From Podarcis cretensis (Eukaryota), in the NCBI GenBank assembly GCA_951804945.1, contig OX638149.1, positions 95,294,001-95,358,000 on the forward strand: 64,000 nt of DNA, given 5' to 3'. Positions 5,682-55,850 of the stretch are shown here, one piece after another; positions within the stretch are counted from its first letter, which is position 1; each line of letters begins with the position of its first letter. The position numbers and the translations under genes were made by a program. The notes beneath the pieces are model-generated. The model saw only the letters and a list, made by a program, of their open reading frames with translations. It searched no databases and was not told the origin of the DNA.

Positions 5682-5705
5682 ATGAGTACCCCCCAGGCAG
5701 AATGA
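5682..5705 (+). other. Upstream ORF MSTPQAE* whose stop overlaps the main ATG (ATGA)
   Basis: gccATG at 5682; TGA at 5703-5705 overlaps ATG at 5702-5704. Confidence 0.6.
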
Positions 5706-5789
5706 AGGGTGGGAGGCACGCTTATACCAGCACGCCTTGCCTGGGCTGGTTCCTCGCCAAGTGTTGCTGCTGTTTCCCAACGTGCAGAG
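5702..5789 (+). CDS. KALRN: Alternative first coding exon (Duet-type): MKGGRHAYTSTPCLGWFLAKCCCCFPTCR
   Basis: ATG at 5702 with A at -3; 29 codons plus 1 nt, then donor AG|GTTGGT. Phase 1 joins the AT at 32006 to give Asp. Closely matches the recalled mammalian Duet N-terminus. Missing from the ORF track in this frame. Confidence 0.92.
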
Positions 5790-8382
5790 GTTGGTAGCCG
5801 GCTACTAAACTGGATGTGCTTCTCGTTTGAACATTGGAGCTCTGGGAGGAAGAGGGTAGGCTGTTCAAATCCAAAACTAAATGTTTGCTACTCCTAACTC
5901 TGGGGATATTAAACTTGAAATGAGTAACCCTGGCTTTGCTATATGGCTGGTGTTTGAAGGGTGCTCAAGAGTTTTCCCTAAGGGGGCTAGGAAGAAGCTG
6001 TACTGTATATAGAAACTGCCATAAAAATAGCATGTTGATGTGAAGTTTGTGCTTCTTAATCTGCACCCTTCCCAAGTGGTATATGTGTGTGGTTTCTAGT
6101 TGCTGCTGGCTTGTCACTCAACTCCATATCTCTGTTTGCACATATCCTCAGATGTCTTCTGCCAGGAGAGAGAGAGAGACTTCTTTCTAGGTTTCTGTCC
6201 AGCATATGCTGCTGGTTAAGGAAGTGCAAACAGAGACCACAACTTTAGGAGCTATAATTCTTGTCTACATGCCCATGCACTCTATATGTTCATTTGACCT
6301 TAGGGCTGTAGCCCTCTGTGCATTTGGTGCTGAGTAAACCCCATCCATTTCAGTGGAGTATGCTTCTGTGTAAAGATAGGATAGGCCCAGAAAGACTCTT
6401 TGATACTAATAAACTAACAAATGTAATGATTGAATGAACCAAGGCTGTATTTTAGAACCAACTCAGAGATAAAAAGTGTGTGTGCTGGAGAGTGGAGCAG
6501 AGTTCATAGTTTTTCTGCAGACAACTTTGTGACCTTGCTTTGCCAATAAGAGCAAACTGTTGCTGAAGGAGTTGTGAGAAAGAACTACAGTATTTCTGAA
6601 AGCATTTATTCCCCTCCCATTAGGGTTTTTTCTTTCTTTCCAGATTGCAGATTCAAAATACTTTGGTAAACGCTGTGTATAAATAAACGAAAATCCAAAC
6701 CTCTCTTTCTGCTGACTTTGGACAAAATATAATAGGGGTGGGGGTTCTTAATTTTCTCTCTGTGTTCCTGCAAAAGACAATAGTGACTTCAGTCTGCATT
6801 TAAAACAATTCATCAGAAGTGGGTGGGATGACAAGGTGTTAACTACATTATGTAGTTTGTATAATTCCTGACTTGGTTTTCTATAGCAAGAAGGTATATA
6901 ATCAATGGTCATAAGTGCTTGTTGTAAACAATGATAATTGGTATTTGTATTGTACTTAATAGGTTTGGCCTCTGTGAGAAAGGCCATTATTTTCTATTTT
7001 ACAGATGAACAAATGAGATTGAAAAGGAGAGTGCATTTGCTCAGTCCAGCAGAAAAGCTTTTTGGACAAAAAGCTTCTGTGCACAGATTGCTTTCTGGAT
7101 TCCAGGCAGGCAGGGGGAAAGGAGACAGTTTCTGGAACTGCCTGTGCAGTGTTCTTAGGGCTACACAACTCCTATCACCTATTGGGGGAAAACTCAGTTC
7201 TCACCTCTGCCTCTCAGCTGAAAAATGCTCTTTTGCCAATGTGTGTGCATGGTTTTCCATGTGTGAGGATCTCTTGGCGGTTGCAAGCAGGTCCATAACA
7301 ATGACCCTAAAATAAAGCCCATTTACCTATGCAAGATAAGGTGGATGTTTCACCTTGCCTGATGGTTATGGAAATCATTCTTGGGTTCCTTATCTCTCTC
7401 ATAGAATCCCATTGAGTTGGTTCTTCCCCAACATTGTTTTCTCTCATTATAGGACCACTTCCCTAGGAGGCCTTAGGCACTGTTGCTTAGCCTTATCCAC
7501 TGCCCATCAGCAATTTGAGCCTATAAAACTAGCCTGTTCTACAGAACTGTACAGACAATATATATTAATGCTTTGTTATTACTCACACTTGAGGAATTTT
7601 CTTCATGGGTCTCATGTATTTGCTAGGGAACTGCGTAGCCACAAATTTTATAACCATCCATGGGTGCTTTTTTCACCCAGCATATGCATGTAGTTTGAGA
7701 TACATTTAGAAAGGCAGAAATCTCCTTCAACAGACTTAATAAGCCATATGCAGTCTTTAATTTTCAAAGTCTGCTTCTCTTTATTTTTAAAGTACCTTAG
7801 ATATTTTATTTTCTCACATAAAAAGATTGAGAAGTTAAACTTCAAAAATATGTGCCAGTTGCTTTGGTTTCATCTAAGTGCTCATATAATTTCATGCCCC
7901 AGGAATAATTTTGCTTCCTCTAGCTGTGATTAAAAAGTGGTGACTTTCCAGAAACTGACTTCTGTTCTGTCAGAATCTGGCTTCTGTTCTGTGGTCATAC
8001 GGTTCTGCTATTTGCATTTCACCCCCAGTTGTAGCAGGCAGTAACCATTCTGTTGCATTCTTTACAAGAAATGCTAAGCAACAAGATATGCCCTCTTTTG
8101 CCACCATAGCAATGCAAATTCAAAATCCAGTGTAAACTTTCATTGTTACAACAGTTGTACAGCATTGTTTTATAAAGTGTAGGTGGTGGTTGTGGACATG
8201 CAAAAAGGCTCAGATGGACAGAGTTCAGCATGGTGTCTTAGTCGTTGCTTTGTGGGTTCCTTTCAAAGATCTCAGTGAGTGAAGTTTTTTATTGTGAGAA
8301 ATAAACTGGACCTTTTTGCATAGCTGCAGTTCAGTATAACAGTAGGGAAATCTCTAGTGTTCTTGCTACCTAATCAGGACAT

Positions 8383-8518
8383 TAGGTAGAGCATGAGACT
8401 GTTAATCTCGGTCGTGGGTTCAAGCCCCATGGGTCAAAGTTTTCTGCATTGCAGCGGGCTAGAATAGATGACCCTCATGGTTCCTTCCAACTCTACAATT
8501 ATATGATTTCGTGATTCT
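8383..8518 (+). mobile_element. tRNA(Lys)-derived SINE with CR1-like 3' tail
   Basis: tRNA-like head with B box (GGTTCAAGCCC), then TAGATGACCCT...CCTTCCAACTCTACAATT resembling the CR1 end at 25530-25590. Confidence 0.8.
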
Positions 8519-9096
8519 AGGTTCTGGTTGTAATATTCCTTTGGGAGTTGGAGAAACACTTGCTGTGCAGAATATAGGAGTTTAACAAAGAATATCTGGT
8601 GGTGTGGATGGCATAAATATGGGCTTTAAAAAATTCTCCACGTTCTGCTGCTCTTGTTCAGGAGGAGAAATGTCCCAAAGATAATGCCCCAATGTGGACC
8701 CTAGAAAGTCAGGTCTGTCTTCCTGACTTTAAATTAGTCCATAGAAATGTTGTTGAACTTCCATTGGTAATCCAAGGTCTGGGTCATACGGTTCTCTCAA
8801 GTATCAAGTTTGGATCTTTACATCCAGAGGACCCATTATAGGGACAGGCACATAATTTTATGACATAAGGTGACCTGAAAACAAATGACAGAGAACACTT
8901 TCCCTACTTTGGCTTGCTGCTGAACCTTTAAACCCAATAAATGTTACAATTATCACTTGCCTATGAAAGACAGCTCCCAGTTGTTGCTTTTTGGTTTAGT
9001 GATACTAGGTTGGTGCTCGCATTCTGGTTCCCGACCAGTAAGAAATGCACAATTTTTTCTCAGTAATGTGTGTGCACTTACACAAAGAGAGGCACA

Positions 9097-9423
9097 TATG
9101 CCCTATCTGCACTGTACATTTAAAGTAGTTTTATACCACTTTAAACAGTCATGGCTCTCCCCAAAGAATCCTGGGAAGTGTAGTTCGTTAAGGGTGCTGA
9201 GACTTGTTAGTGCAACCCATTTTCCCCTCACAGAGCTGTGATTCCCTGAGTTCCCTGGGAAGAGGGATTACTTGTTAAACTACTCGGGGAACTGTAGCAC
9301 TTTGAGGAGGATGGGGTCTCCTAAGAATTCTTAGCGTCCTTAACAAATTACACTTCTCAGAATTCTTTGGCGGAAGCCATGACTGTTTAAACTAAGCTTT
9401 AAATATAGTGCAGATGGGGCCAT
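9097..9423. mobile_element. Palindromic non-autonomous DNA transposon (MITE), degraded
   Basis: Imperfect long terminal inverted repeats (ATGCCCTATCTGCACT.../...AGTGCAGATGGGGCCAT) and internal symmetry. Confidence 0.65.
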
Positions 9424-9509
9424 AGACATTTCAAAGGTACTCTTTGGTGAACATGCAAATGGAGTTAAAGTCATAGGTGCTCCCGTGTGTCTATCTCTAA
9501 AGAATTGTA

Positions 9510-9939
9510 CAGTGGTGCCTCAGGTTACAAATACTTCGGGTTACAAACTCCACTGACCTGGAAGTAGTACCTTGGGTTCATCATCATCATCGACTTTTAT
9601 TGCGCTAGCCATTCAGAAAAATAACAAAAGGAAAAACAGCAATAACCATAAAAATCATCGGGCACCACACATACAATATAAACCATGGTCACAACTACTA
9701 ATATTGATTGTTGCATAAAATAGAATAGCAGAAGATTCTCTAGTAAAATGTGCCAAATTAAATATCCAAATAGTACCTCGGGTTGAGAACTTTGCCCCAG
9801 GCTGAGAATGGAAATTGCATGGCAGCGGCGCGATGGCAACGGGAGGCCCCATTAGCGAAAGCGCGCCTCAGGTTAAGAATAGTTTCAGGTTAAGAACTGA
9901 CCTCCAGAACGAGTTAAGTTTGTAACAGAGATACCACTG
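9510..9939. mobile_element. Tc1/mariner (pogo/Tigger-like) MITE, family A, interrupted by a retro-insertion
   Basis: TA-flanked CAGTGGT... TIRs; same body as the copies at 14602, 24641 and 63411. Confidence 0.88.
9579..9770 (-). mobile_element. 5'-truncated non-LTR retroelement 3' end nested in the MITE
   Basis: 14-bp TSD TAGTACCT(T/C)GGGTT at 9565-9578 and 9771-9784; minus strand ends AATAAAAGTC(GAT)n. Confidence 0.8.
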
Positions 9940-11186
9940 TATTTGAGACTTTTTAAAAGCCTGTGCAGTTTGCTTTCTGCATTACTCTCCCATGTCCTTG
10001 TACCTTGAAAATGTAAGTTGAGATAAGTAGAGCTAAGCTATGGCTTAAGTGTTTCCTGCTCTGTAGAAGGTCATTAGCAAGGAAAATCTAAATCGGACTA
10101 GAGAAAATGTGAAACCAAATTTTTCCAAGAGGGGAAACTTGGCTTTAGATTTCTGCTGAAGCTTGGGCTCATTGATACTTGACTTCCTACTTAGGCTACT
10201 AGTACCTTCCAAACCAAAAAAATGTGCCCACAAGATTCAGGCAAGGCTACTTGAATGTATGGGTTTCAAATATTAGAACAGGGCCTCACCAGAAATAGAA
10301 ATGTATTCAGTCTGGAATGACGTTTTGGTATGTACCTATTATGTGGAACACCATCTATTTTTGCTGGCCACACACAGATAAATTCTCTGAGATCATACTC
10401 TATCCCTCTACCTCTCAATTCATTTCAGAGTCAAGCAGAAGATACTTATGGTGCAACCTGTGATGGGATCTTCTGACATCCTTGTTTTTCTTTGTTTAAG
10501 CTGATATGTGGGGCTCTCAAATTGGCCAAAATAGCAATTTCTAAATTGCCTTCAGATGAAATGGTTGCTGACTCCACCATTGAGTCAGATAGAGAGAGAT
10601 TTTTCTTTTACAACATCAAAACCAGAAGTGTTGAGTATAAGTGAAAATTACAACAAAACTCTAGCTTACTTTTAATGTAAAGACAGCACTCCCCTTATGG
10701 ACGCATTGTATCATAAGGATATCTGGTTGTAGCTTTGAACTTCTGACTTTACATTTTATAGACCTAGGTATCTTCATGTGAAGGAGATAGGAGTGAGGAG
10801 GAATGGGGAGGGTAATGTCCCCGTCCCCCCCATAGCTAGTGCTTTCATGGTATCTGGAACGCAAACTGGTCATGTTTGTTTGTGTTTCCTATGTGGCAAC
10901 AAAGGGTGCAGGCCTGTGATTCTGAACCTGACTGTTTTCACCTTTTCTACATCAGGAGCAGCCTATGAGAAACTGGTAAAAACCTACCCTTAATTGCAAA
11001 TAACTATTTGTGGGTTACATGCATTGTTAGCCTTTGGAGTCTGTGAAATTAAAACAGTAAGAGAGGTGTTTTGTTTTGTTTTGTTTTTGTTTTTTTAGTA
11101 CCTATGTCCAACAGTGCTTAACCAAAGACTCTCATAGGAGGTTACAAAAAGAAAGACATTGAAAACATTCTTTTGAGCACTGGTTT

Positions 11187-11189
<3 letters not shown>

Positions 11190-11217
<28 letters not shown>
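11190..11217. repeat. (CA)n microsatellite
   Basis: Perfect dinucleotide run. Confidence 0.95.
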
Positions 11218-12624
11218 TGAAGAATAAAAAAGAAAGAAGGGAAAGAAGGGAAAGGGAAAGGAATAGATACATTCCATAATTCTATTCCTTCGACTTCCCA
11301 TCCATCTTCCCATTGTTCCCTAAGGCTTCCCATTCCTACTGCATATTCTATTTTTTCTAACTATTTAAACATTCAAATTCTTCTCATTGTGAACTTTTTA
11401 ACTGCTGAGCTTACTTTTTAGGTAGTCTACAAATCTTGTGGCTCAGGGGGAAGGCTAATTGTTATTGTTAGCTGATTGTTTTTGATAGTGGGTTAGTGTT
11501 GGTTGAATAGTTTTGGTGCTTTAAAAAACAATTTGTTGTAGTTTTATATTTTTATCCTTTTCCTGTAAGGCACTTTGAAACTCCATCATCACTGATATCT
11601 ACTTGTTGCAGGTTTACTTCTCTTCACAATGTCAGTGCCAAGGCAGCCATTCTTCACTGTAGCTCTCTGGGCAACCCACCTGTCTAAAGAAACCAATCAA
11701 CTGCTACCGTTTCTGTGTCTTCTCTTTAGTAGTTTTGCTGCCAAATTGGGCTCTGTATATCTTCTCCCTATCTGCTATCATTTAACTACCCTAACATGCA
11801 GTTCAACGCATAGATTATTTGTACCTCTAAAAAAACCTCCACTAGCAGGATCTTTTGATTGTCAGAAATATCCTGGTATAGTGGCACTGTTTTAAAATTT
11901 GATGCTTTTCCTTTAAGGCTGTGTGCTGACCTTTAAACATACAATGTTGTCTTGATAAGAAATGAGAGAGATAGACCTTGACTCTTGGGCCCACTGTATC
12001 TCTAAGAGTCGTTCTGCTTTTAGACTTGCTTTATAAAGCATGTATCTTTTTATTATTTTAATAAACCTTATAGATTATAATAATGCAACGGCTCTGAGGT
12101 ATTTTGAATAGATATTACTTCATATGTAAATGACTTCTATTGATTCCCAGACACACAAGCATTGTTCATCTTGTCATCACATTTTTTTCTCTGTGTGTTC
12201 TGCCCCCCCCAATTATACTAATTTGAATGTCTTTTTTAATCTTGCTATTGGGTATTAATACTTGAAACTTTTTTGTGTCAATAAAGCCTCTTCTAAGATA
12301 TCTAATTCTGAAGAAACTCAATGTTTTTATGCTGTTTTGTAAAACAGTGGTCACAAGAATGGAAGAACCAAAAAGAGAGAAATGTGGATAAATTATTATG
12401 GGGAAAATGGGGATAAGGAACTGGTGGCCAGAGTTCCTCTCTAGAAATCACATGCTATATAAAATAATTATCTGTTTGTTTCAGTGCATAAACAAGCCAT
12501 GGAGGAAAGAGCAGGTATTTATTGATGTCAGCAGATTCATGACCATAAATACCTGCTCTTTCCTCCAAGGCGTTCAAGGTGGTACATATCCTTCTATGTC
12601 ATTGTATTTTCATAGCAGTCCTGT

Positions 12625-13393
12625 TAGGACAGCTCTCCTTTTCCAGGGGGGCTGCGTTGCGGGAGGGGTTCCGGGACCCCCCAGTTACCAGGCAGTGGGT
12701 GAAGGGATGCTGCCCACATCAGTGGGACGCCCAGCCGCGTCACGCCCCCCCCAGCTGACCAATTGGGTTAGCTGGAGGCGTGGCCACCTGCCATTTAAAC
12801 AGCGGTGCGACTTCGGGGCAGCCTCCATTCATCTCCTTTCGTCGGATCTCCCAGCCCTCTTTCCTTGCATTGCATGACTATGGCTTGCTATGACTAATGT
12901 CGGTCGCCTGGTTGTCGGAGCCAGGTAGGAATTTTTCCACTTGGCAAATCGGCACCAGCCATTTAGTTTTCGCCTACCTAGTAGCAATCATCACAACTTT
13001 AAGGTTAGGCATTGGGTAAGCCTTGTCATGGGAGGGGCAGTTGTTGCCTCAGGCCTGCCCCTCCACGTTAAGGGTATCCCGTTAAAGGGATCCGGGGGTG
13101 TAGTTCCTGTCCGAAGCCTGGGTGTGGGCAAGGGCCATGCCAGGACCCCATCAGTGACCCTGGGAGTGCTCTTAATTGATGTATATCATAGGGCTCCCCC
13201 TATCAGTGGTTGACCTTTTTAGACTTCCTGCAGGAGTCAGGATATAGTCTTGCTTCACCCAATTGCCTAAGCCAAACCGCTCACATATGTAACCAATAAA
13301 GTTGTGGCCTTATTTATCCCATTAACCCAACATATGCATGTCTCTGTGTTTATTTCTGGGGGAACTGCGGGGCCCGGGGCCTCACCACGCAAA
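12625..13393. mobile_element. GC-rich LTR-like or DIRS/Ngaro-like terminal-repeat insertion splitting an older SINE (family unassigned)
   Basis: Sharp GC/CpG-rich block with AATAAAGTTGTGGCC near its 3' end; flanks resume a SINE-like sequence (...AGCAGTCCTGT / TAGGTTAGGCTGGGAGA...). Confidence 0.55.
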
Positions 13394-13704
13394 TAGGTTA
13401 GGCTGGGAGATGGTAACTGTCCTGCTGTCACTCAGTGAGATTTTAACCTCCCAGACCTAGTCTAATACTCTAATCTGGGGATGAGAAATCTGTGGCCCTC
13501 CAAATCTAGCCCCAGTCAGAATGGCCAGTGGTCAGGGATGATAGATCGTAGATAGCGATAGTAGACAAAGTTGTATTTTAGCCAGGTTTGAGCTGTAATC
13601 TTTACTAAATCACAATGGATTTGTAAGTTCATTAATAATAGCAAGTAATAAATACCAACTGGAAATACAATATTAGGCAAGCTAAATAAAACCACTCTTT
13701 AGGG

Positions 13705-19300: not shown

Positions 19301-19413
19301 CAAATAACTGATTTTCTACTCTGATTTTAAAGGCAATAAATGTTAGAGGTACATGCAGAACTGACTTTATCCATAATGAATGTTCTCAGGAATCTAATCA
19401 GAGGAGGTTAGCA

Positions 19414-20319
19414 TAGGGTTACCAGATGTCCCCGTTTCCCAGGGACAGTCCCCGGACAAATTCCATCCCCAGAATGTCCCCGGATTTCATCTAATGTCCC
19501 CGGGAAACGCAGCAGCGGCAGTTTCAGCAGCCCGGAGCAGTTGCCTCTGGCTGGCTTCAGGAGCTGCTTGGAAGTCCCCATATGGTGGTGGTGCAGGGGC
19601 TCTAAGATGCAGCTTCCGGGCTGCCTCCACCTTCCCTGACCCCAGCAACTAAGCTGCGAAGGAAGGCTTCATGCTGCCTATCAGAGCAGCCTCCCAACTC
19701 CTACTTGCGTGCAAGCAGGAGGGGGCAGGGATCTCTCAGTTAGGCAACAGGAAGCCTCCCTTCCCAGCTGAGGAATCCCCACCCCCTCCTGCTTGCAGGC
19801 AAGTAGGAATGGGATTGGAGCTGCTCCTATGGGAAGGGAGGCGTCACACTGCTTAACTGAGAGATCCCTGCCCCCTCCTGCTTGCACACAAGTAGGAGTT
19901 GGGATCAGGGCTGCTCCATAGACCCATGCAAAACCTCCTTTCCCAATTGAGGGATCCCCACCCCCTCCTGCTTGCACGCAAGTAGGAATGGGATTGGGCT
20001 GCTCCGATGAGAAGGGAGGCATCGTGCTGCCCGAGCCTCGCCGCCGCCACTCTTGGCCTTCCTCTACCTTCCATGCCTGACCCACCACACACTGCTTCCT
20101 CACCACCACCACCGAAGAACCAACAACTCAGGGGCTGCCCAGGCTCATGGAGAAAGGAGATAGAAGCCTCGGAGGAAGGGGAAACATGGCGGTTGAGGTC
20201 AAGGCGGCGGCTGCCACTCTGCCACTGCCTTCGCTGCAGCATCAATGTCCCGGACATGAAGTATTTATTTATTTATTTATAGTATCCCCTGATTCATTGA
20301 AAAAAATCTGGTAACCTTA
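19414..20319. mobile_element. 906-bp non-autonomous hAT element (Blackjack-like termini) with internal repeats
   Basis: TIR TAGGGTTACCAGAT / ATCTGGTAACCTTA; perfect 8-bp TSD GGTTAGCA at 19406-19413 and 20320-20327; subterminal GTCCCC repeats. Confidence 0.9.
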
Positions 20320-23300
20320 GGTTAGCAGGCAAGCCATTCGGCATTTATTCATGTCTAACCAGGGGCACCATCGGGGGGGGGGGGGAGGCCACCCAAAAAT
20401 TTGGGGCAGGGGGCCGAGCCTGCCTCAAAATTTTCAAGGAGAGGGCTGAGCCCCCTCAGCATTCTTCAGTCACAGTGGGGCCCATTAGATCTTCCTGCAC
20501 CTGCAACAGGTCCTGGCGGACCCTCCCAAGGTCCTGGCAGGCCTTTTTGAGGCTGTGGCGGGCCATGGCGAGCCTCCCCATGGCTGCGGCTGGCCCCATT
20601 GGGCTTCCTCCTACCACATGACATCACATGTGTGTGCTGGGCCCCCTCCAAAGTTGGGTAGGACCCAGTGTGTGTGCATCTAACCATTTGTAAGAAAGGA
20701 GAGTTCTCTCTTGGTTTCTTCATGGAGCAGTAGGGCAATTTCTGGGGCAGTGCATATATGAACATAATATATGTGTGTGAATTGCTTACAAATAGCATCT
20801 CTATTAGTAGTCAATGTTAAATTATTTTATTTAGATTTAATTGGTTACCACTCTTTCTTCATTGTTTGAGAGGGTGATTATGTGGAGAATTGGCTCATCT
20901 TGCAATCTGAGAATTATATCTACCCGGTGGGAGGATCAAGTTTTAGCAAGACTGGTGACTGAATGCAATAGCTAGGTTCAGAAGGGCTTGTTTCAGTGCC
21001 ATGGAACTGTATTTGTCAGGGTGGTGGTCTATCAGTTGCCTACTACGTGATGTGATAGGTGATTTAATGAAACTTAATTTTGTGCGTGTGCTGTACAAAA
21101 TGCTTTCATGCTACCTGGAATAAAGCCACTGTTACTTTTTTCCTTGAAAGCCTCTTTTAGACATTTTTGAGCCCAGCTCACTTCTATGTGTTGCTATTAA
21201 ATATTGCATACTGTTTAGCCCATAACCCTGGGCCAAGTTATGTTATATTGGAGGAAGAAAAAAAGAGGCAGTTGTAAGTCCCATCAATAATATTGCCCAT
21301 CAATGGATGGATCAAAAGGTCAAATGACCATACTTTGTTTACTGGTAGATAATATCCAGTAAGAGGTGACTTGAATTGGGTCTGACTCTTTAACCCAGGC
21401 TTCTCAACCTCCAAAACTAGTTGAACTCTTAATTTCCATTAGCCCCTGCCAGTATGGACAACAGTCAGAAATGATGGAGCTAGGCGTCCTGTAACTGGAG
21501 GGGCAGGCACCAGGTTGAGGAAGACTCCTTTCAATCACCTGTGCAGGTATGCATAGAACTCATATTTAAGTGCTATCTTTTGTTGAGACTTTCTATAATC
21601 TTCTACAGCACTCATTTCATGTCATAGGCACTATACATAGAAATAGCAGACCTAATGCTGTCGGTGTTTCCTCATATGAAGGAAAACTGCTTGAACCATG
21701 TGACCAGACCCATTTTCGCATCCCTTGGAGAATATCTGGAAAATAGTCACCCTGGAAAACTGCATACAAAAGTTGCATTGTTGAGACTTCAGTGTAATAA
21801 TTTTATATATATATATAATCATACATCAGTTCCTTTCAGCAGACAGGTTGGTGCTTGCAGCACCTATTCTATTCTTTCTCTGCTTCTCCCCGCCCCAGCA
21901 CATGCTGAATCCCTGATGCAGACACATGAACCTGGTTGTTTTCACTTTCTCAAACTAAGCAGGCATTCTATAAATCTTGCTTTTTATATGAGAATGTATT
22001 GCTGTCCCTCATATTTTGTTCAGAATTATAAGAGTTTTCAATAAAATGTGTATCCAACTATAATTAAACTTTGTCTTCGATTTCTTTCAATCCTGTTGGA
22101 GTTGGAGAAAAATGTAGCAGTTTCAGTGGCTCAATTAGCATTGCCAGTTTTATTTCCTTCTGAAAATCCCTTGTTGATACAGCGATGTTTTATGCTGGGG
22201 GGGAGAGTATCATCCCCACCCATTTTCCGAATAATTCAGAGTAGCAGTTGTTGTAATGTAGCTATAATACACATGTTTTCCAAGCAGCTGTCAGCTCAAC
22301 ACAGGCTCCATTGTTTCACAGAGCGCATCAGAGAGCATCTTCATTTGCTGGCTCTCAAATTCAGCTGTGAAGGTCCTTTCCAGTTCATCTGTTAATGAAA
22401 CAAATTTCTTATTAGAACAGATTACATCATCCAAGGCCAGCACCATCCTATACAAAGTGAGTCAAAAAGTGGCTAAGCATTCTTCTAACAGAGCCCCCTC
22501 TGATCATACTGGTATGGTTAGTAAACTACTCACAAATTGTCAGTGGGAGAAATTAATAAGCAGAAAGTCCTGCAGTAGCATGTGTGTGGATGCTAAAGAA
22601 CAGTTCCATTTGTTAAGCTAGTGTGGCTATATAGCTACAGAGCTTTAAAAGGGAATTTTCCGTGTTCTAAAAAAAATCCCTGTTCTTAAAAAAAAATCAT
22701 TTCAGCAAAGTTCTAAAAACAATAACATTGTTTCAGCAAACTCTAAAAACAATAAAATCACCCTACTGGGCTTAATTGTGTGGTTGAAGGCTTCTGTCAG
22801 CCACTTTCAATGTAGTGGCAGGCACTATGTGGCAGGCTTTTAGATGCCTGCTGCATTGTTTTTTGTTATCTGAAATCATCCAGAGTTGACCCAGAAAGGG
22901 CAGGAACAAATTAATACTTTTAAATAGCTGACTGATCATGTTGACTTCAATACACCTTTGTCACACAACTTGGGGATGATAATTTATATTCAGAGGATGA
23001 AAGGAATAGAGAAGGTTGCTGTGAGTCATAATTTCAAGGAACTCGGCCAAATTCCTGGAACAGCCTCCCTTCTCTCAAGCTGCAAATCAAGTAGGCAGGA
23101 GCAGCTAGTTATACCTGTAGCTTCCCCAGTTCCCCAAATCCCATCCTTTCCTTGCAGAAGTGGAAAAGCTGTCTGGTTAATGGTCCATGACTTGTGTTCT
23201 TTCAAGAGGATTTCTGTAGGGATCAATGAAACGAGTTAATTTTCCTGCTTGGTTGGCTTGAACAACTACATGAAGCAGAAAAGACTCTATAGACACCAGC

Positions 23301-24542: not shown

Positions 24543-24640
24543 TACTTTTTTGGTAGCAGTAATCTATTTGTTTGGTAGTGGTAACTTCCTTAAATTCACA
24601 CAGCTCAGATTTTACCATGGAAGCGCAAGTAAATTTTATA

Positions 24641-32005: not shown

Positions 32006-32289
32006 ATTCCTATTCAGCATCCTCTAATGAAAATGGAGGGAAATCTGAATCGGTGGCCAATTTGCAGCCTCATTCATCCATCAATTCCATCCAGAGCTCC
32101 CCTGGTCCAAAGCGCTCTACCAACACACTGAAGAAATGGCTAACCAGTCCAGTACGCCGATTGAATAGTGGAAAGGCAGACAGTAACATCAAAAAGCAGA
32201 AGAAAGTGCGCGAAGGAAGGAAAAGCTTTGACCTGGGATCCCCCAAGCCTGGAGACGAGACCACACCTCAGGGAGACAGTGCAGATGAG
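32006..32289 (+). CDS. KALRN: KALRN exon, linker after SH3-1 (DSYSASSNENGGKSESVANLQ...QGDSADE)
   Basis: ttctggcag| acceptor, GAG|gtatgg donor; phase 1 to 0; contains KKWLTSPVRRL. Confidence 0.97.
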
Positions 32290-33358: not shown

Positions 33359-33463
33359 AAGAGCAAGAAAGGTTGGGGCGAAGATGAGCCAGATGAAGAA
33401 TCTCATACACCACTCCCTCCTCCTATGAAGATTTTTGATAATGATCCCACACAAGATGACATG
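33359..33463 (+). CDS. KALRN: KALRN exon (KSKKGWGEDEPDEESHTPLPPPMKIFDNDPTQDDM)
   Basis: tttcag| acceptor (CAGAAG tandem acceptor), ATG|gtagga donor; 105 nt. Confidence 0.96.
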
Positions 33464-39537: not shown

Positions 39538-39633
39538 TCCTCCTCTTTGCTAGCTGCTCGACAGAGCATCTCCGATGTCCCAACTGCAGCGGATCTTGTC
39601 AGTGCAATAGAAAAACTGGTCAAAAGCAAGCTG
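39538..39633 (+). CDS. KALRN: KALRN exon (SSSLLAARQSISDVPTAADLVSAIEKLVKSKL), probable cassette
   Basis: cttgcag| acceptor, CTG|gtaagt donor; 96 nt, phase 0-0. Confidence 0.95.
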
Positions 39634-41600: not shown

Positions 41601-41734
41601 ACATTAGAAGGAGGCTCCTACCGGGGAAGCTTAAAGGATTCCACTGGATGCTTGAACGAAAATGTGACACCTTCAACTCCTCCTTCAAGAAACCTTGAAG
41701 AAGAACAAAAAGCCAAAGCTATGAGAGGCAGGAT
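41601..41734 (+). CDS. KALRN: KALRN exon (TLEGGSYRGSLKD...EEEQKAKAMRGRM)
   Basis: ttttaag| acceptor, AT|gtaagt donor; phase 0 to 2. Confidence 0.96.
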
Positions 41735-42830: not shown

Positions 42831-42897
42831 GTTTGTTTTAAATGAACTTGTACAGACAGAGAAGGACTATGTCAAAGACTTAGGAATTGTGGTGGAG
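42831..42897 (+). CDS. KALRN: KALRN exon, start of DH2 (FVLNELVQTEKDYVKDLGIVVE)
   Basis: ttttag| acceptor, GAG|gtgagt donor; DH conserved region 1 motif. Confidence 0.97.
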
Positions 42898-43189: not shown

Positions 43190-43293
43190 GGATTCATGAA
43201 AAGGATAGAAGAAAAAGGTGTTCCTGAAGACATGAAAGGGAAAGACAAGATAGTGTTCGGTAACATTCACCAGATCTATGACTGGCACAAAGA
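43190..43293 (+). CDS. KALRN: KALRN exon, DH2 ([34 protein letters not shown])
   Basis: ttaaag| acceptor, GA|gtaagt donor; phase 0 to 2. Confidence 0.97.
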
Positions 43294-44227: not shown

Positions 44228-44297
44228 TTTCTTTCTCGCTGAACTGGAAAAGTGCCTTCAAGAGCATGACCGTTTAGCACAGCTCTTCATCAAACAT
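44228..44297 (+). CDS. KALRN: KALRN exon, DH2 (FFLAELEKCLQEHDRLAQLFIKH)
   Basis: attgcag| acceptor, CAT|gtgagt donor; phase 2 to 0. Confidence 0.97.
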
Positions 44298-45497: not shown

Positions 45498-45584
45498 GAG
45501 AGGCGATTACACATGTATGTGGTGTACTGTCAAAACAAACCAAAATCTGAATATATAGTAGCGGAATGTGGTGCATATTTTGAG
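45498..45584 (+). CDS. KALRN: KALRN exon, DH2 ([29 protein letters not shown])
   Basis: tttacag| acceptor, GAG|gtaagg donor; YCQNKP motif. Confidence 0.97.
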
Positions 45585-46830: not shown

Positions 46831-46923
46831 GAGGTGCAACAAGAAATAAACCAACGGCTAACTCTCAGTGACTTCTTAATAAAGCCCATTCAAAGAATAA
46901 CCAAGTACCAGCTGCTACTCAAG
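46831..46923 (+). CDS. KALRN: KALRN exon, DH2 conserved region 3 (EVQQEINQRLTLSDFLIKPIQRITKYQLLLK)
   Basis: ttctag| acceptor, AAG|gtgaaa donor; 93 nt. Confidence 0.97.
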
Positions 46924-47545: not shown

Positions 47546-47596
47546 GATTTTCTAAAATACAGTGAAAAAGCTGGGCTGGAATGTTCAGAGACAGAG
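47546..47596 (+). CDS. KALRN: KALRN exon, DH2 (DFLKYSEKAGLECSETE)
   Basis: ctgtag| acceptor, GAG|gtatgg donor; 51 nt. Confidence 0.95.
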
Positions 47597-48952
47597 GTAT
47601 GGACTTTTATCTACTGTCTTTTCTCTTTTGTATTGTTTTTACTGAATGATTATAATGTGTTCATGTTGCAAGCTGGCTTGGGTGTTTGTATATTAACAGA
47701 AAGTCAAGATACCAAAAAAGTATATGAGTGATTTTCATATGGTGAAACCAGTAAGAAGAAGAAAAATGATTTTTTTATTGTTTACTCCCCTCCCCACCCC
47801 ACCTCCACTGCCTTTAAATACTTGCTTTTATGCTGTATTCATTTTCAATAATGTTTAATGTAAAATGTCAACTCGGGCTAAAATTAGTGAATGAAAATCT
47901 AGCCTTATGAGCAGCAAATTGAATATCCTTACTTTAGACTTTCCTTGCCCTCTTCCTTTGATCATCAAGGATAGTTGCAATTGACACAAGGTAACATTTG
48001 ATATGATGCATTAATTAAAAACACAGTTACAAATTTGGAAGACACAAGTTCGGATACCAGCCTAGAACTTGCAAAGGGTCTTTCAGTAGACCAAGATGTT
48101 GCTTGATGTCACTTCCATCGGTCCCAGGCAGCATCGCCCCCTCCAGGAGTTGTGATCCAACAGCTGGAGGGGACCGTGTTGGCTACCAAACAGTATTTGT
48201 TCAGATAATTTTATTGAAGTCCCTTTCAAGCATTCTCCACATGCTCACCTTTGTGTTGAATGGAGCTTTACTGCCCCTTCCTGCCATCAGTTCATGGGGG
48301 GGGGGCGGAGTCTGAAGTGGGGAGCTTTCTCTTTATGCATAGGTTCACTCTGTCCCATACTGCAGTAGTTGCCGATAATTAGATCAGTGGACACATTTTG
48401 AATTCTGAGAGAGTGCACCATGGGAGCATGGCATAACACAAAATTAGACAATACAATCAGATGGAGCTTTTCCCTCATCCACAGGTCTTGAACAGGAGTT
48501 CAAAATCCTTTTCCTATGTCCAAAACCAACCCTTCTGTAGCCCCACTTAAAGGCAGGCTGTGGAGCTATGGCTTCATCAGTGCTTGCATTTGGTAAAGTT
48601 AATGGGGCTTGCTGAGAGTTAATGGTCTCTAGATGGTTTGAGGCAAAGGCAGCTTCATATGACTGGCTTGCAAGGTAGTAATGGATTCAATTCCTGCCCC
48701 ACCTGTGGTTGGCTTCACTGAACCACTTTCACCCCACAGCCAAAACAAGGAAGGCTCTTCTTGCTCTGGTCACTTTGGGCATTTCCTGTGTACAGCAGGC
48801 ATCTACATGGGTGGGGATTGTGGTCAGTCCTTGGTGGCAATAATTGTGCCTGCTAGAATTATTTTGTAGGTGGATTTTTGGGTCACACTGTAGGTGTGAT
48901 GGGAAGCCATATTTGAAGTTCCACTGTCTAGCTGCTTTAGTAATTTGTTATT

Positions 48953-49024
48953 TTGTTGTTAAGTCTTTTAGTCATTTAGTCATGTCCGACTCTTCATGAC
49001 CCCATGGACCAGAGCACACCAGGC
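48953..49024 (-). mobile_element. Short RTE/Bov-B-like LINE 3' terminus
   Basis: GTCATGTCCGACTCTTCATGACCCCATGGAC with a (CAA)n-type tail on the minus strand. Confidence 0.65.
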
Positions 49025-49231
49025 AAAATAAGCATTGACCCTCTTGCTTGAGCGGTCTTGAGCTATTTGCTCCTCTGACATCTTTCTACAAGATGCCCAC
49101 TTTCAGACTCTGGCCTCTGTACCATGGATGGAAGGGTCAATACGTGGTTTGCCCTACCTTGAGTAGAGTAGCACACTAGATGCCCTTTCATTTCCTTCCA
49201 GTTCTGATTATGTATTGCCTCTCTCCAATAG

Positions 49232-49309
49232 AAAGCTGTGGAGCTGATGTGCCTTGTTCCTAAACGCTGCAATGACATGATGAACCTGGGTCGTCTTCAG
49301 GGCTTTGAG
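49232..49309 (+). CDS. KALRN: KALRN exon, end of DH2 (KAVELMCLVPKRCNDMMNLGRLQGFE)
   Basis: ccaatag| acceptor, GAG|gtagaa donor; 78 nt. Confidence 0.96.
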
Positions 49310-49732
49310 GTAGAAGTCAATATTTTTAAATGTGGATGTAATAGTACAATTGTTGACACTAATAGCTGTGTCTCATTGGAATAGCCCAACTGCATTTTAG
49401 AAAGGGGGGGGGAGTTGTGTGAACTTTCTTCCATAAAATGGTGGGTATGATATGCTTAAACTTTCTGCTTTGAGTCTTACCCAGGAAGGAAGTTTCGTTT
49501 GTACACTTGTGGGCATGAGTGTGCTCTTACACATGTGCATACACACACACAGCTGAACAGAGACTGTTTAATCATTTCCTTTGGCACCTGTAATCACATA
49601 GCAAGCAGTTTCTTATGCCTGGTGCCTTTTACCTTTGCTGTTGTTGTTGAAGGCATCACTGTGACTCTCAGTCCAGTGAAACCTTGAAGCTTCTATGTAG
49701 TATTGTGTTGAAGTTGTTGTAGCTTATGGATA

Positions 49733-50237
49733 CAGTGGTGCCTCGCAAGACGAACGCCTCGCAAAACGAAAAACTCGCAAGACGAAAGAGTTTTCCATTT
49801 TTGAGTCGTTCCGCAAGACGAATTTCCCTATCGGCTTGCTTCGCAAGAAGAAAGCCCATAGGGAAATCTCCGGGGACCTCTTTTAAATGCTGGCGGTGGG
49901 GAGCAAAGCCTTTCGCCCCCCCCTCCGGCCTTCAGAAGAGGTCCAGGAAGGCTGGTGGGGGCCGAAAGGCTTTGCTCTCCACCGCCAGCATTTTAAAAGC
50001 CGTCCGGGATAGCAGGAAAGCACGGTGGAAAGAAAAGCCCTTGTCCCTCCCCCCCCAGCCTTCAGAAGAGGTCGGGGGACAGACTGTCCCCGGACCTGGT
50101 CTGAAGGCGGTTTCCATAGGAACGCATTGATTGATTTTCAATGCATTCCTATGGGAAACCGTGCTTCGCAAGACGAAAAACTCGCAAGAAGAAAAAACTT
50201 GCGGAACGAATTAATTTCGTCTTGCGAGGCACCACTG
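49733..50237. mobile_element. 505-bp Tc1/mariner (pogo/Tigger-like) MITE, family B, young
   Basis: TA TSD; perfect 22-bp TIR CAGTGGTGCCTCGCAAGACGAA; repeated CGCAAGACGAA subterminal motifs; CpGs retained. Confidence 0.93.
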
Positions 50238-50739
50238 TAATTTCCCTGTTACTCCTGATTCTCCACTGTGGGATTGCTTAATTTATAAGTCATTTTGAGT
50301 AAAACTTCAGGCATCTGCTTCAGAGTCACCAATGTGGAAATCTTACATATGGCAGGGCATTGGACTGAATCCCTTATCACACATACAATATAGTATGGTG
50401 TGGGAGATATGCACATACACCTGTATGTGTGTGTGTGCATGCCAAATTCCTTTGTTCCTTCAGGGTTTTTTTGATGCAGGAGGTTTGCAAGGGTCAGATA
50501 TATGGGTGGGCATGCATATATTGTACATAATTCCATATTCATGTTAGGGTATTGGGTACATGAACTTGGTAGCGAGTTTTGAGCATAGATGGCTAAACAT
50601 CATGTGATAATGAATCATTTCACACACGTGAGCAAATCCTAAGGTCTACCCCAGACCATGTGATAACATGATGGCCATGAATGAGTGCCTTTCATCTTTC
50701 TATGCCATCTGTGTTTAACTTAACAATTATTTAACTTAG

Positions 50740-50925
50740 GGCAAGCTGGCAGCCCAAGGGAAGTTGCTACAGCAGGATACGTTCTATGTAACGGAGCAGG
50801 ATTCTGGAGGTCTCTCTCGGCCAAAAGAACGCAGAGTTTTCCTCTTTGAGCAAATTGTCATCTTTAGTGAACTTCTGAGGAAAGGCTCTCTAACACCTGG
50901 GTACCTTTTTAAGCGAAGCATAAAG
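50740..50925 (+). CDS. KALRN: KALRN exon, PH2 (GKLAAQGKLLQQDTF...ERRVFLFEQIVIFSE...KRSIK)
   Basis: acttag| acceptor, AAG|gtaagt donor; 186 nt. Confidence 0.97.
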
Positions 50926-51295
50926 GTAAGTTGTGGTTGTGCTTCCTTGAGTCATTTGGAAACTTCACTGCAGTGCATTTTTCCTTTTCTTGGTTTGCTG
51001 CACACTAGATAAGCAAAGTTGGTGGTGTGAAAAGGTCCTTCTGCTTCAGTGCAGGAGGTTTAAAGAAGATGGTCATTAGGCCCTTTTCCAGTCCTACAGT
51101 TCATGTCATTCTCTGACTTGCAGCCATGTACAATAGATATATAATCTATTTTAATATTCTATTCTATTATTCTGTGACGTGTGTCTGTGTGTGCAGACTG
51201 AGTGAGTGATTAAATAAAACTGCTAGAATAGCATAGGGTTAGGATAATGAGCGTCAAAATAACATCACATCTAATTAGAGCTGAACTATCTAAAC

Positions 51296-51649
51296 CAGAA
51301 TTGGAGAACCTTAGGCCTAGGGGCCAAATGCCCCTTGGCCCCTCAGTACTCTCACTTGGCCATACCCCATCCCTGAGCTACACCCTCTCACAGACAGCCT
51401 CAGCAGTCTCCTTCACTGCTTTTGCCTGGATGAAATGTGTTGTTGACCTACAAAAACACCTCTTGCTTGCCTTGATGGATGGGTGTGTGTTGTGTGTGTG
51501 TGTGCTTCTGAATTCTACAGGGCTCATATATAGCCTACTGTACAAAGGTAGAAGTTGCATCCATTGCCCCACCCACTGGCATCCGACCCATAGAAGGTTG
51601 CCCATGAAGGAAAGTGACTTTCAGGACTGAAAAAGATTCCCAACCCCTG
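51296..51649. mobile_element. Degraded hAT non-autonomous element
   Basis: CAG...CTG termini with an imperfect TIR and imperfect 8-bp TSD ATCTAAAC/CTCTAAAT. Confidence 0.55.
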
Positions 51650-52138
51650 CTCTAAATGTTCAGCAAAAAACTTCAGTCAGCAAATGATAAACCTTCGTGC
51701 ACTTGAATTATATACCTGGGCAAACAGCATTATATTTTTCCTCTTAGAGGCTGTTCTGTTGATGCTTGTGTTTATTTGGCAATATGACAGAAAGCATTTT
51801 CTGTTTTGGAGGGCGTCTAATTTAGAGCAATTTTCTTCCTCCCACCCATAATTATTAGCATTGCTAACCATTGAAGAAAGCCAGTAACTCAGAGATAATT
51901 GAACTGTTCTTGAAGATGCTTACCACAGAAGTTGAAGAACAAAGCTGAAAGCCAAGTATTCTCTATGGGACGTTACTTCCAGAGAGTTCCTCCTCTGGGG
52001 AAGTGAACCTTCTGTGGTTGCTGCTCTTCATTTGGACAGTGGTGGCAGGGCCATCTTTCAGTTTAGCTGCTATATAGTTTACCTGAATTTGCTTGCTCCC
52101 CCTTGAATGAGCATTGAGCTTTCTCTGGTTGCTTGCAG

Positions 52139-52310
52139 ATGACATACCTAATCCTTGAGGATAATGTGGACAATGATCCCTGCAAATTCGCACTCATGAG
52201 TCGGGAAACGTCAGAAAGGCTCATTTTGCAGGCAGCCAATCCTGAAATCCAGCAAGCTTGGGTGGAGGATATCAATCAAGTGCTGGACACACAGAGGGAC
52301 TTCTTAAATG
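52139..52310 (+). CDS. KALRN: KALRN exon, PH2 (MTYLILEDNVDNDPCKFAL...QRDFLN)
   Basis: ttgcag| acceptor, G|gtaagc donor; phase 0 to 1. Confidence 0.97.
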
Positions 52311-52559
52311 GTAAGCATTTTTATCTCTGTCCTTGATTATAGAAAACCCAAGTGCTTTCTGACTGTTCTGGGCAGAACCTTATTCCTACCTAGATTGCTG
52401 TTGCAGGCCACCTCCATAACTGTCATGCACGCTGACCTTCCTTTTAAATGGAGCATGACTGGAGGCAGATAAATTTTGTGCTAAGGATTAAAATCTAGGG
52501 TGAAAATCTTTTTCTTTTAGGAAGTCTAGCAGTGGATTTCAGGATGTGGTGTGTTGGAT

Positions 52560-52830
52560 TGTACCATTGTCCCCCAGATCACCCCATCCAGATACTTACT
52601 GCCACTCTCGAAGAACTCCATAAATGGTTAGCAAGACAAGTCCTACTTTCTCAGAAGCCATGTTAATTCTTCTTCAGCGGCACTGCTTTTTGTATACGCT
52701 ATCATCTTTCACAACGGTGTCCACCAATTTACCTGGAACAGATGTTATGCTAATTGGCTTGTCATTTCCTGTATCCCTCTTTAAAAATTGGCCACTTCAC
52801 AGTCCTTAGGTATGCAAGCCAGTCTTGGGT
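52560..52830 (-). mobile_element. Old CR1 RT fragment
   Basis: Minus strand gives a degraded 'GN..PISITSVPGKLV' CR1-like RT segment. Confidence 0.55.
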
Positions 52831-53512
52831 ACAAGCTACATTTTTCCTCCAATGAAGCTAAATCATGTGAGATTCAGGACATATTAGAGGAAGTCCTACT
52901 CCAAACAGTATGTAGTTTCAGCTATGGACTCCTCTTCTACTTAGAGAGGATATAGCAGCCCACAAGTTCCCCATCCATGTTATATTTGCATATAGTAAGG
53001 GATGGGCATGCAGAGCTTCTGACTTTGAAACTAGGTTTGTTCTGTTTTCTTCTTGCTCTTAAGCCAGAATTTTGCAGAAGCTGCCTTTGCCTCTCTTCTC
53101 TACCAATTTCATCTTAAATAAAATAAAGATAAGTAATCTTTTAGGTCTAGCTGCTATTTAGTATCAACCACCAGAGCAACAAATTATGGAAGCAGGAGGG
53201 ACATCACTGAGCAGACACTGCTCACTGTTGCTGTTATCAAGAGGCTAGAAGTAGGGAGTATTACTATGAGCTCCAAGCGGGCCTGATCTGCACCGTTGGG
53301 TTTTTACAGTCTTGTTAAGTCAGCACTTGTGAAAGTGCTTCCTTCACTCTTCCTGAAGACAAACTTTCAGTGCTTCCAAGCTATGTAGGTGAATGGTTTG
53401 TATTTTCCCAGGCTACTTGTTTGAAACAAGCTAAACATGGCATCCCTTGCATTAGGCAAACATGGTGTCACAAATGGGCAGGTCTGTACTAACTCCTAGT
53501 GTTCTACTCCAG

Positions 53513-53754
53513 CACTACAGTCTCCTATAGAGTACCAGCGCAAAGAAAACAGCAGTTCTGCTGTAATGAGACCCCAGACCAGCAGGGTACCTCAGCCCAT
53601 CACCAGACCCTATTCCTCAGGTCCAGTAGGGTCGGATAAACCTTTGAAGGCTACAATGCGTAACCCATCTCTTCCACCTCTGAAAATATCTACCTCCAAT
53701 GGCAGCACAGGGCATGAGCAGCACCAGCCTGGGGACAAATATGAACTAATCAAG
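53513..53754 (+). CDS. KALRN: KALRN exon, PH extension (ALQSPIEYQRKE) and Pro/Ser-rich linker
   Basis: Perfect TACTAAC branch point at 53487-53493, ctccag| acceptor, AAG|gtatgt donor; phase 1 to 0. Confidence 0.96.
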
Positions 53755-54727
53755 GTATGTATGTATTTTCACTTTGTGTTGTTGTTGTTTTTACTGCAAT
53801 TGCCATCATTTCAAATTTGGCCTGTTACTGATCCTGGTTAGTGGATGTGAGTACTTGAACCAGTGAGTCAATAACTGCTGATCCAAGAAGGAAATGAGCT
53901 TCAGCTTTCAGACAGCAAAATCCAGTCTTAAGTCTGTTCTGGGTGTTAGGAAAGGGCTCAAGAATCTGCATGGTGCAATTTTTTTTAAAAAGCTGAAAGC
54001 AAATTCGACAGAGGGAGACACAAGTGCATCTCTAGCCTTGAAATCACTGCCACATGTGCTGGTGGCTATTAGTTGTAATTGCTTTAAAGAACAACAATCT
54101 TAAGACAAATTCATGGGGAGTGGTCCCCCCTGATGGCTGAATGGGAAGTCCATGTTCAGAGGGAGTAGATAACAGCAAGGAAGTGCAATTGCCTTCATTC
54201 CTTCTTGCAGACTTCTCAGCAACAACTGGCGTAAGTGAAACATAGGAATCTGTGGTATACCAAGTCAGACTGTTAGTCTGCCTAGCTCAGTATTGTCTAC
54301 ACTGACTAGCAGGGTTTCAGTCCTAACTCTCTCCCAGCCCTACCTGGAGATGAGTAGAACCAGGGAGCTTTTGCACACAAAGTTCTTCTTGCTTCTTATT
54401 TTTCTTTACCTTAATTATATCAGCTGCAGTACTTCCATTATGTGACCAGAGTTTCACTTTGCCTTCCAAAACCGATGTAACTTGATGCATTTATTTAACT
54501 GATCTTCTCCCATCTCCCAAATTAGGAAAATAATCGATTTTCAAAAATGTCCTATGAAATTAGTTGACAACTGTTGTTTCCCAAGCTTATGCGTAGGTTT
54601 TTTCCACAAGCAGGCTATTAAAAAGAGCTACTGCTTATAGTGACAATGAGTATGCATTTGTGAATTTACGCCAACTGATCTGTAGTCCATCAATCGCACA
54701 GCATCACATGGAAGGAAACACAGTGCA

Positions 54728-54741
54728 GTTGCCTAGGCAAC
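54728..54741. promoter_or_regulatory. Palindromic RFX X-box
   Basis: GTTGCCTAGGCAAC is a perfect 14-bp palindrome matching the RFX dimer consensus. Confidence 0.55.
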
Positions 54742-54876
54742 ATTCTGCTGTGCACACTGAGATGTCTTGTAAACTCTTAGTACACTTAAATGTGTTGCCC
54801 AGGAGATGCTGATAAAAAAACTTAGCATTGCAGCCGAGCTATCTTGTCACTGTTGCTTTCTGTGTCTCTTCTTCAG

Positions 54877-55124
54877 AATGACTTGGGTGGGTGCAATGGG
54901 ACCTCTTCTATGGTGGTCATCAAAGATTACTATGCACTGAAGGAGAATGAAATCTGTGTCAACCAGGGTGAGGTGGTCCAAGTACTTGCCATTAACCAGC
55001 AGAACATGTTCCTTGTGTACCAGCCTGCCAATGACCATTCACCAGCAGCAGAAGGATGGATCCCAGGGAATATATTGGCTCCCCTCACTAAATCAACTAC
55101 AGATAATAGCGATGGAGGCATAAA
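54877..55124 (+). CDS. KALRN: KALRN exon, SH3-2 (NDLGGCNG...DYYALKENEI...AEGWIPG...DGGIK)
   Basis: cttcag| acceptor; donor AA|gtaagt. Without splicing the frame ends AAG TAA at 55128. Confidence 0.97.
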
Positions 55125-55128
55125 GTAA

Positions 55129-55850
55129 GTGCTGTGTTGGATTCCCTGGGAGCAGTATGTGGATTTTTGAGGAAAAATAAAACCCAAATCTTAGGATTTT
55201 CCTGCCTTTTTTAAAATCTACAGTGCCATTGGAACAAACTTTGCTTGGTAACACAACATGGGGTATCCATGTTGGCATAGTTGGGCTTTTGTTGGAATTT
55301 TGTTCTCTCCCCGCTCTGCCCCCATAGTTTGTAAAGAATTGAAATCCATAGACAGTTTAAAGGGCATAGTTTCCCCCCATCCTTTCCTAAATATGGACCT
55401 GATTTGACTGGACTTGTATTTATCTTGTGTTTTAAATTGCTTATAATATATATAAATATAAATATATATATATAGGTTATAATGATATAGAGCAAAGAAA
55501 AACACCACCCACATACATCAGGCCTTGTATTGGATTGAGACCCACTTCTCAAGGACTAGAGATTCGATGTTGTCAATGGCAATTTCTTGTACAGATTGTA
55601 ACTTTTTTATTTTGAAAGTTTCTTTTTTCTGTTCACATAATATTTTGTAATAATAATTTGGTTTGAGAAATCCCCTTTGGAGTACATTCCTGTAAAAAGT
55701 ATTTTGCACTATTTAAAGAAACCCATATTTGAAGTCAGGTTGTGCAATATTATGGATAGTCGCAATGTTCATCATTGTACCTGTAATGTAACTAATAATT
55801 TTAAATGTACTATTTTAAATATGTAAAATAAATTTTCACCATGAGCATGT
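55129..55850 (+). terminator. KALRN: Intronic alternative 3'UTR and polyadenylation site (Kalirin-9-type end)
   Basis: In-frame TAA within the donor; AU-rich segment with TGTA motifs and miRNA seed matches; AATAAA at 55827-55832 followed by U/GU-rich sequence. Confidence 0.7.

Follow-up and report, generated by a model that had tools for sequence, protein, structure and literature searches.

A 16-exon unit in the 3′ half of lizard KALRN corresponds to the kinase-less isoform Duet9, a likely Galpha-q-to-RhoA effector with a predicted N-terminal membrane anchor

The 3′ half of the lizard's KALRN gene lies in the window, by which we mean the whole 64-kb stretch of DNA analysed here. With good though not complete confidence, we assign the 702-aa reading frame assembled from 16 of its exons to a known KALRN isoform, Duet9, of which it would be the lizard orthologue: a RhoGEF lacking the kinase domain, which likely couples Galpha-q to RhoA and which palmitoylated N-terminal cysteines are predicted to hold at the membrane.

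Results

A sequence-only reading of the window had joined a first coding segment (5702-5789) to 15 further exons, giving 2109 nt and 702 aa with a single terminal stop. All coordinates of this model hold (Table 1), and all internal exon ends are AG/GT. The domain content claimed in the same reading was recovered as well: a Pfam scan of the 702-aa protein placed the DH domain at residues 238-407, the PH domain at 422-529 and SH3_KALRN at 621-689, that is, GEF2 DH-PH plus the second SH3, without GEF1, spectrin or kinase domains. The SH3 region matches PDB 1wfw, “Kalirin-9a” (residues 624-690), and PDB 8c7d (Kalirin) was also matched. The proposed likeness to p63RhoGEF was borne out by the best PDB match, 2rgn_B (E 1.5e-143), and from a separate comparison of first exons it appears to reach exon 1 as well. 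Solved structures of homologous complexes are available. At the sequence level, the protein has the RhoA-type DH-PH and the Galpha-q-binding extension of p63RhoGEF, and this extension, DFLNALQSPIEYQR, is unchanged in all 48 Duet9-type proteins compared. The cassette exon 4 is present in 22 of these 48 and skipped in P0350. In a DH-PH tree of 23 rows, the 702-aa protein falls inside the KALRN clade with support of 100/100.

Table 1. Features of the Duet9 unit and its surroundings in the window.
Feature	Position	Strand	Basis or remark
CpG-rich region, putative internal promoter and 5′ UTR	5000..5700	+	GC 0.52, CpG o/e 0.78 vs 0.23 in the window
7-codon upstream ORF, stop overlapping main ATG	5682..5705	+	sequence
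Duet first exon, coding part only, 29 aa	5702..5789	+	residues 22-25 form a Cys cluster; donor in phase 1
Exon 2, SH3-RhoGEF linker (PF16609)	32006..32289	+	Pfam
Exon 3, linker	33359..33463	+	model P0001 begins this exon one residue shorter
Exon 4, cassette, 96 nt / 32 aa	39538..39633	+	skippable in frame; size equals human exon 37 (PMC11630257)
Exon 5	41601..41734	+	sequence
Exon 6, DH start	42831..42897	+	sequence, domain scan
Exon 7, DH	43190..43293	+	sequence
Exon 8, DH	44228..44297	+	sequence
Exon 9, DH	45498..45584	+	sequence
Exon 10, DH	46831..46923	+	sequence
Exon 11, DH	47546..47596	+	sequence
Exon 12, DH end	49232..49309	+	sequence
Exon 13, PH	50740..50925	+	sequence, domain scan
Exon 14, PH and beginning of C-terminal extension	52139..52310	+	sequence
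Exon 15, ALQSPIEYQR extension and Ser/Pro-rich linker	53513..53754	+	sequence
Exon 16, coding part, second SH3 and Kalirin-9 stop	54877..55128	+	alternative donor after 55124
Putative Kalirin-9-type 3′ UTR	55129..55850	+	sequence
AATAAA, likely poly(A) signal	55827..55832	+	5 upstream TGTA elements
Next exon, longer Duet12/Kalirin-12 forms, outside Duet9	59184..59307	+	in-frame splice from 55124

Galpha-q binding to the PH extension likely frees the DH domain to act on RhoA. PH autoinhibition of Kalirin GEF2 is described in the literature, its activation by Galpha-q is cited in PMC11630257, and the purified GEF2 is a weak RhoA GEF. Residues 1-29 of p63RhoGEF are enough for membrane binding, for which Cys23/25/26 are needed (PMC3722567). 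By homology with these residues, Cys22-25 of Duet9 would be palmitoylated; we infer a “membrane-anchored” Duet9 that would be seated at the plasma membrane through this cluster, and its SH3 domain may add a scaffolding role.

Alternatively, Duet9 is made while its cysteines stay unpalmitoylated or serve another purpose such as metal binding; as with p63RhoGEF619 or Trio Duet, the protein would then be a cytosolic one that active Galpha-q recruits. We rate this as unlikely, since a run of at least three cysteines, adjoined by aromatic and basic residues, is kept in 47 of the 48 Duet9-type proteins and corresponds in position and exon to the palmitoylated segment of p63RhoGEF. On the other side, our literature search found no palmitoylation of Duet in print, and cytosolic p63RhoGEF619 relocates upon stimulation and activates RhoA equally to the anchored form (PMC5105084), so that anchoring may matter little. 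Trio Duet, for its part, is cytosolic in rat forebrain (PMC5132261). Lizard TRIO does resemble KALRN in having an internal first exon in the equivalent intron and in the same phase as Duet, as well as a GTAAGT read-through after the second SH3 (Trio 9S/9L and Trio Duet compared). Its internal first exon, however, lacks the Cys cluster (0 of 19 proteins), and none of 115 candidates in the TRIO intron is a Cys-type first exon; the location of Trio Duet therefore says nothing on Kalirin Duet.

The sequence-only reading had further regarded the Duet start and the Kalirin-9 end as known only separately, which is wrong. Their pairing was named “Kal Duet9” in mouse (PMC3541206), has been quantified indirectly in human and is annotated in human and lizard, so the claim of novelty fails. 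Both ends are found in human NP_001309923.1 (kalirin isoform 10, 709 aa), in which 583 of 702 residues are identical to the lizard frame and which differs by a 10-residue insertion near residue 386 that the lizard protein lacks. End to end, the frame is identical to the Podarcis model XP_053260279.1 at 701 and to Podarcis muralis isoform X15 (XP_028599476.1) at 700 of 702 positions. The N-terminus aligns with the human entry and with the lizard models, the Duet first exon being spliced to the linker exon that follows SH3-1. Among the 120 homologues listed, 64 have the Duet start; 48 of these (48/64, 48/120) combine it with the Kalirin-9 end, from amphibians to primates, and 10 (10/64, 10/120) with the kinase end.

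The lizard RefSeq entries are XP_ computational models, and such models can join ends without full-length support. It is conceivable on these grounds that, in the lizard, transcripts from the Duet promoter are distinct from those with the Kalirin-9 end and that annotation software combined them into the 702-aa model, yet this seems very improbable given that the human entry carrying both ends is an NP_ record. Moreover, mouse muscle and liver contain Kalirin9-end RNA without the upstream (KalSpec) signal (PMC3541206). For human, PMC11630257 gives DUET's share of signal from the terminal exon of KALRN-9, estimated by exon-coverage subtraction, as about 85% in muscle, 66% in frontal lobe and 25% in aorta. 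A small Duet contribution in neuroblastoma (PMC8017594) would fit separate molecules and indicates that Duet use is tissue-dependent. In liver, RNAs of 2.5 and 3.3 kb “could encode” Kal Duet9 and Delta-Kalirin9 (PMC3541206); for the lizard Duet9 mRNA we estimate 2.9-3.1 kb with starts assumed at 5400-5600.

Duet9 as a single molecule would be transcribed from the CpG-rich region upstream of the first exon, where bin 5001-5500 contains 31 CpG at an o/e of 1.0 (window 0.23) and ranks second among all 500-nt bins; a Duet promoter is known from the literature. A GC-rich patch at 19400-20700 was considered as a second promoter and rejected at a CpG o/e of 0.30. A further reading, in which the RNA is made but little protein results, ribosomes being diverted by the upstream ORF at 5682 with its start in GCC-ATG context and its stop overlapping the main ATG, is barely credible: the literature does state that how much DUET protein human brain contains is unknown, but conservation of the 29-aa N-terminus extends from amphibians to primates, which implies translation.

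At the 3′ end, the donor after 55124 (GTAAGT) joins 59184 in frame, and reading through it leads to a TAA at 55126-55128. We rejected this stop as evidence by itself, because any phase-2 GTAAGT donor yields TAA, as happens at 3 of the 16 donors (exons 5, 7 and 16). The sequence-only reading had credited the unit with its own CpG promoter and its own AATAAA. Both the CpG-rich stretch and the AATAAA at 55827 are present; as evidence, a bare AATAAA was discarded, the hexamer occurring at chance level (62 in 64 kb, about one per 1030 nt), with a further copy at 55176. The 80 nt upstream of the copy at 55827 contain 5 TGTA, more than those of any other of the 62 (runner-up 3); this feature was picked after the sequence had been read. 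Cleavage near 55845-55850 would follow whenever the 55124 donor stays unused. Duet/Duet12 (Kawai 1999, as given in PMC3541206 and PMC11630257) has the promoter and the first 16 exons in common with Duet9 and differs by the splice from 55124 to 59184 and by its Ig, FnIII and kinase domains.

Lizard ARHGEF25 is encoded at a separate locus (G000:C2:5.10-5.15 Mb), where Duet9 is not encoded. Like Duet9, ARHGEF25/p63RhoGEF580 has the DH-PH and the ALQSPIEYQR extension (2rgn_B) and a first exon of the Cys type, whose phase-1 donor leads into a homologous linker exon; for the 9 DH-PH exons compared by eye, the boundaries agree. It differs in its C-terminal tail and in lacking any SH3 match in 80 kb around the locus, whereas Duet9 has an SH3 after the PH extension; palmitoylation is shown for p63RhoGEF and predicted for Duet9. 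In the same 80 kb, no upstream GEF1 or spectrin exons were found beyond PH cross-matches.

Compared with the Duet first exon, that of lizard ARHGEF25 ranked first of 443 candidates, a result reached by 2 of 5000 shuffles. For the same pair, hhalign gave a local P of 4.9e-5 (probability 68%) and a global probability of 4.8%. An HMM built from 40 distinct peptides of the Duet first exon and run against 2759 ORFs of the ARHGEF25 region left the ARHGEF25 exon outside the top 6; neither in that region nor in TRIO did any match fall below E 0.03. When the 29-aa exon was searched against the whole genome, the only matches were itself and one at E 1.85, and the ARHGEF25 exon was missed. In the DH-PH tree (23 rows, distant outgroup), KALRN may group with ARHGEF25, with weak support (90/67, unstarred); TRIO is unresolved at 33/0. 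The tips of Duet and p63RhoGEF appear to be of common origin.

Discussion

We tentatively suggest, at somewhat less than even odds, that ARHGEF25 and KALRN are sister copies, of which the former retained nothing but the Duet unit, first exon included, and that the p63RhoGEF and Duet tips are one ancient module. Duet9 would then join p63RhoGEF as a second palmitoylated Gq-to-RhoA effector; it would dominate in muscle, be unaffected by existing Kalrn exon-13 knockouts and be the sole such effector in birds, in which ARHGEF25 is reported lost. In PMC5105084, ARHGEF25 is said to have split from “either Trio or Kalirin”, a question that a common first exon would decide for Kalirin. The point on the origin of exon 1 is modest, of specialist interest and easily testable. 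Further afield, the RhoGEF-2-only short isoforms of C. elegans UNC-73, e.g. UNC-73E, have been likened to Duet9 (PMC3541206), and UNC-73E rescues Trio RhoGEF mutants.

Duet9 is not new but has received little study. It escapes most Kalirin antibodies, and Duet-promoter transcripts persist in the exon-13 knockout (PMC3541206). Should the Duet9 tip carry palmitate as the p63RhoGEF tip does, Gq receptors in muscle and brain would have, in Duet9, a redundant path to RhoA that has been overlooked.

Reading frame and database counterparts

The window covers the 3′ half of KALRN from a lacertid lizard (G000:C1:95294001-95358000). The sequence-only reading had assembled from it a unit of 2109 nt and 702 aa, and locating its 16 exons one by one in the sequence and summing them confirmed the exon coordinates. 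This frame, Duet9, joins the Duet first exon to the Kalirin-9 end and is kinase-less; its single stop lies at 55126-55128, and splicing from the donor at 55124 to 59184 keeps the frame. Pfam domains of P0002, a near-identical database protein, are a linker (29-127), RhoGEF (238-407), PH (422-529) and SH3_KALRN (621-689).

The frame matches Podarcis muralis isoform X15 at 700/702 positions and P. raffonei X14 at 701/702, the lizard entries (XP_) being computational models. Human kalirin isoform 10 (NP_001309923.1, 709 aa; 583/702 identical) has both ends as in the window; the NP_ prefix marks a curated entry. Exon 2 as a query for longer proteins gave 249 matches, and our counts come from the 120 listed. 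A Duet-type Cys-rich N-terminus was present in 64 of these 120, from salamanders, frogs, squamates, turtles, crocodilians, birds and mammals. Among these 64 listed proteins, 52 end just past the second SH3 (48 have the exact Kalirin-9 terminus), ten run on to the kinase and two end otherwise. A 96-nt cassette exon (39538-39633), equal in size to the brain-enriched human exon 37, occurs in 22 of the 48 listed Duet9-type proteins.

The two ends had been taken as known only separately. The available part of PMC3541206, however, uses the name 'Kal Duet9' for a mammalian isoform driven by the Duet promoter, compares it to short UNC-73 isoforms and gives 2.5 and 3.3 kb liver RNAs as possible messages for Kal Duet9 and Delta-Kalirin9. 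The pairing is therefore already known, and the isoform is annotated in human and lizard entries.

Candidate promoter and transcript ends

The CpG region at 5001-5500, a candidate promoter of the Duet start, is real: it holds 31 CpG (observed/expected 1.0 vs 0.23 for the whole window), a count exceeded by only one 500-nt bin (near 49751). In neuroblastoma, H3K4me3 marks the Duet exon in all lines tested, yet Duet RNA is scant (PMC8017594, available part). The most CpG-dense bin (32 CpG), within 49700-50250 in intron 12, is probably a repeat. In the 26-kb first intron, 19400-20700 shows GC 0.57, CpG observed/expected 0.30 and short internal repeats. A 7-codon upstream ORF (5682-5705, GCC-ATG context), whose TGA stop shares bases with the main ATG at 5702, could thereby dampen Duet translation.

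GTAAGT at a phase-2 donor yields a read-through stop automatically, and such a stop is seen at 3/16 donors of the frame. AATAAA occurs 62 times in the 64-kb window; the copy at 55827 has five upstream TGTA vs 0-3 at the other 61, which is supportive but no clean test, since this feature was chosen after the sequence had been inspected. Another AATAAA (55176-55181), 52 nt past the donor and 48 nt past the stop, has no upstream TGTA and is a possible minor proximal poly(A) site.

Related exons in ARHGEF25 and TRIO

The PH exon has two further copies in the genome, in ARHGEF25 and TRIO.

Paralogous features on C2 and C7
Feature	Position	Locus	Remarks
ARHGEF25 first exon	G000:C2:5102251-5102341	L013	GC-rich region, 30 aa, Cys cluster
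TRIO internal first exon	G000:C7:15100217-15100319	L019	corresponding intron, phase 1, kept in amniote models
TRIO read-through stop after second SH3	G000:C7:15147110-15147640	L023	GTAAGT donor, AATAAA ~525 nt downstream

The TRIO internal first exon (33/34 identical to a Varanus model) lacks a Cys cluster, unlike the KALRN Duet exon; rat brain Trio Duet is cytosolic (PMC5132261, available part). Both genes share the read-through donor past SH3-2, the TRIO end being Trio-9-like.

The ARHGEF25 first exon resembles Duet exon 1 in length and, like it, has a phase-1 donor reading GAG|GT; the linker exon that follows is homologous to Duet exon 2. For scoring, 4/24 Cys-flagged N-termini without the KCxCC pattern were dropped and 14 distinct Duet peptides kept. 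Against these, the exon came top among the 443 candidates in 80 kb that run from an ATG to a phase-1 donor (the four best rows all start at its ATG); in reverse, Duet exon 1 ranked first of 162. The pair score was reached by 2/5000 shuffles, and hhalign gave a local P of 4.9e-5 (probability 68%; global 4.8%). Since HMM search and genome search with the Duet first exon both missed the ARHGEF25 exon, and Cys-rich peptides inflate similarity scores, a common origin is probable rather than proven.

A DH-PH tree grouped KALRN with ARHGEF25 (90/67, unstarred), and a split of ARHGEF25 from Trio or Kalirin is already suggested in PMC5105084 (available part). ARHGEF25 is reported to have been lost in birds (PMC5499878, available part); bird Duet9 models retain the Cys cluster. 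The available part of one paper on ARHGEF25-KALRN paralogy contained no discussion of the first exon. P0177 (turtle) and P0188 (gar), two long ARHGEF25 models, contain a sulfate-transporter domain (PF00916) that probably results from annotation fusion with a neighbouring gene.

Putative mechanism and membrane anchoring

The closest PDB matches are p63RhoGEF (chain 2rgn_B), TrioC and Kalirin GEF2, and the PH extension DFLNALQSPIEYQR is unchanged in all 48 listed Duet9-type proteins. Autoinhibition of p63RhoGEF is relieved when Galpha-q binds its PH extension (PMC3722567, available part), PH2 deletion raises RhoA activation by Kalirin, and Kalirin GEF2 is stated to be activated by Galpha-q (PMC3541206, available part). 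By analogy with p63RhoGEF relief and the PH2-deletion effect, Duet9 is likely a Gq-to-RhoA effector, as proposed from the sequence: active Galpha-q would bind the PH extension, release autoinhibition and so activate RhoA.

Residues 1-29 of p63RhoGEF suffice for membrane binding through Cys23/25/26 (PMC3722567, available part). The Duet first exon encodes 29 aa with Cys22-25, and a run of at least three N-terminal Cys occurs in 47 of the 48 listed Duet9-type proteins; we infer that Duet9 may be anchored through predicted palmitoylation of these residues. The literature available in part yielded nothing relevant on palmitoylation of Duet or Kalirin. Anchoring carries less weight because cytosolic p63RhoGEF619 activates RhoA to a similar degree (PMC5105084, available part). 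The remaining interest of Duet9 lies in the predicted palmitoylation of its N-terminus and the probable common origin of its first exon with that of ARHGEF25.
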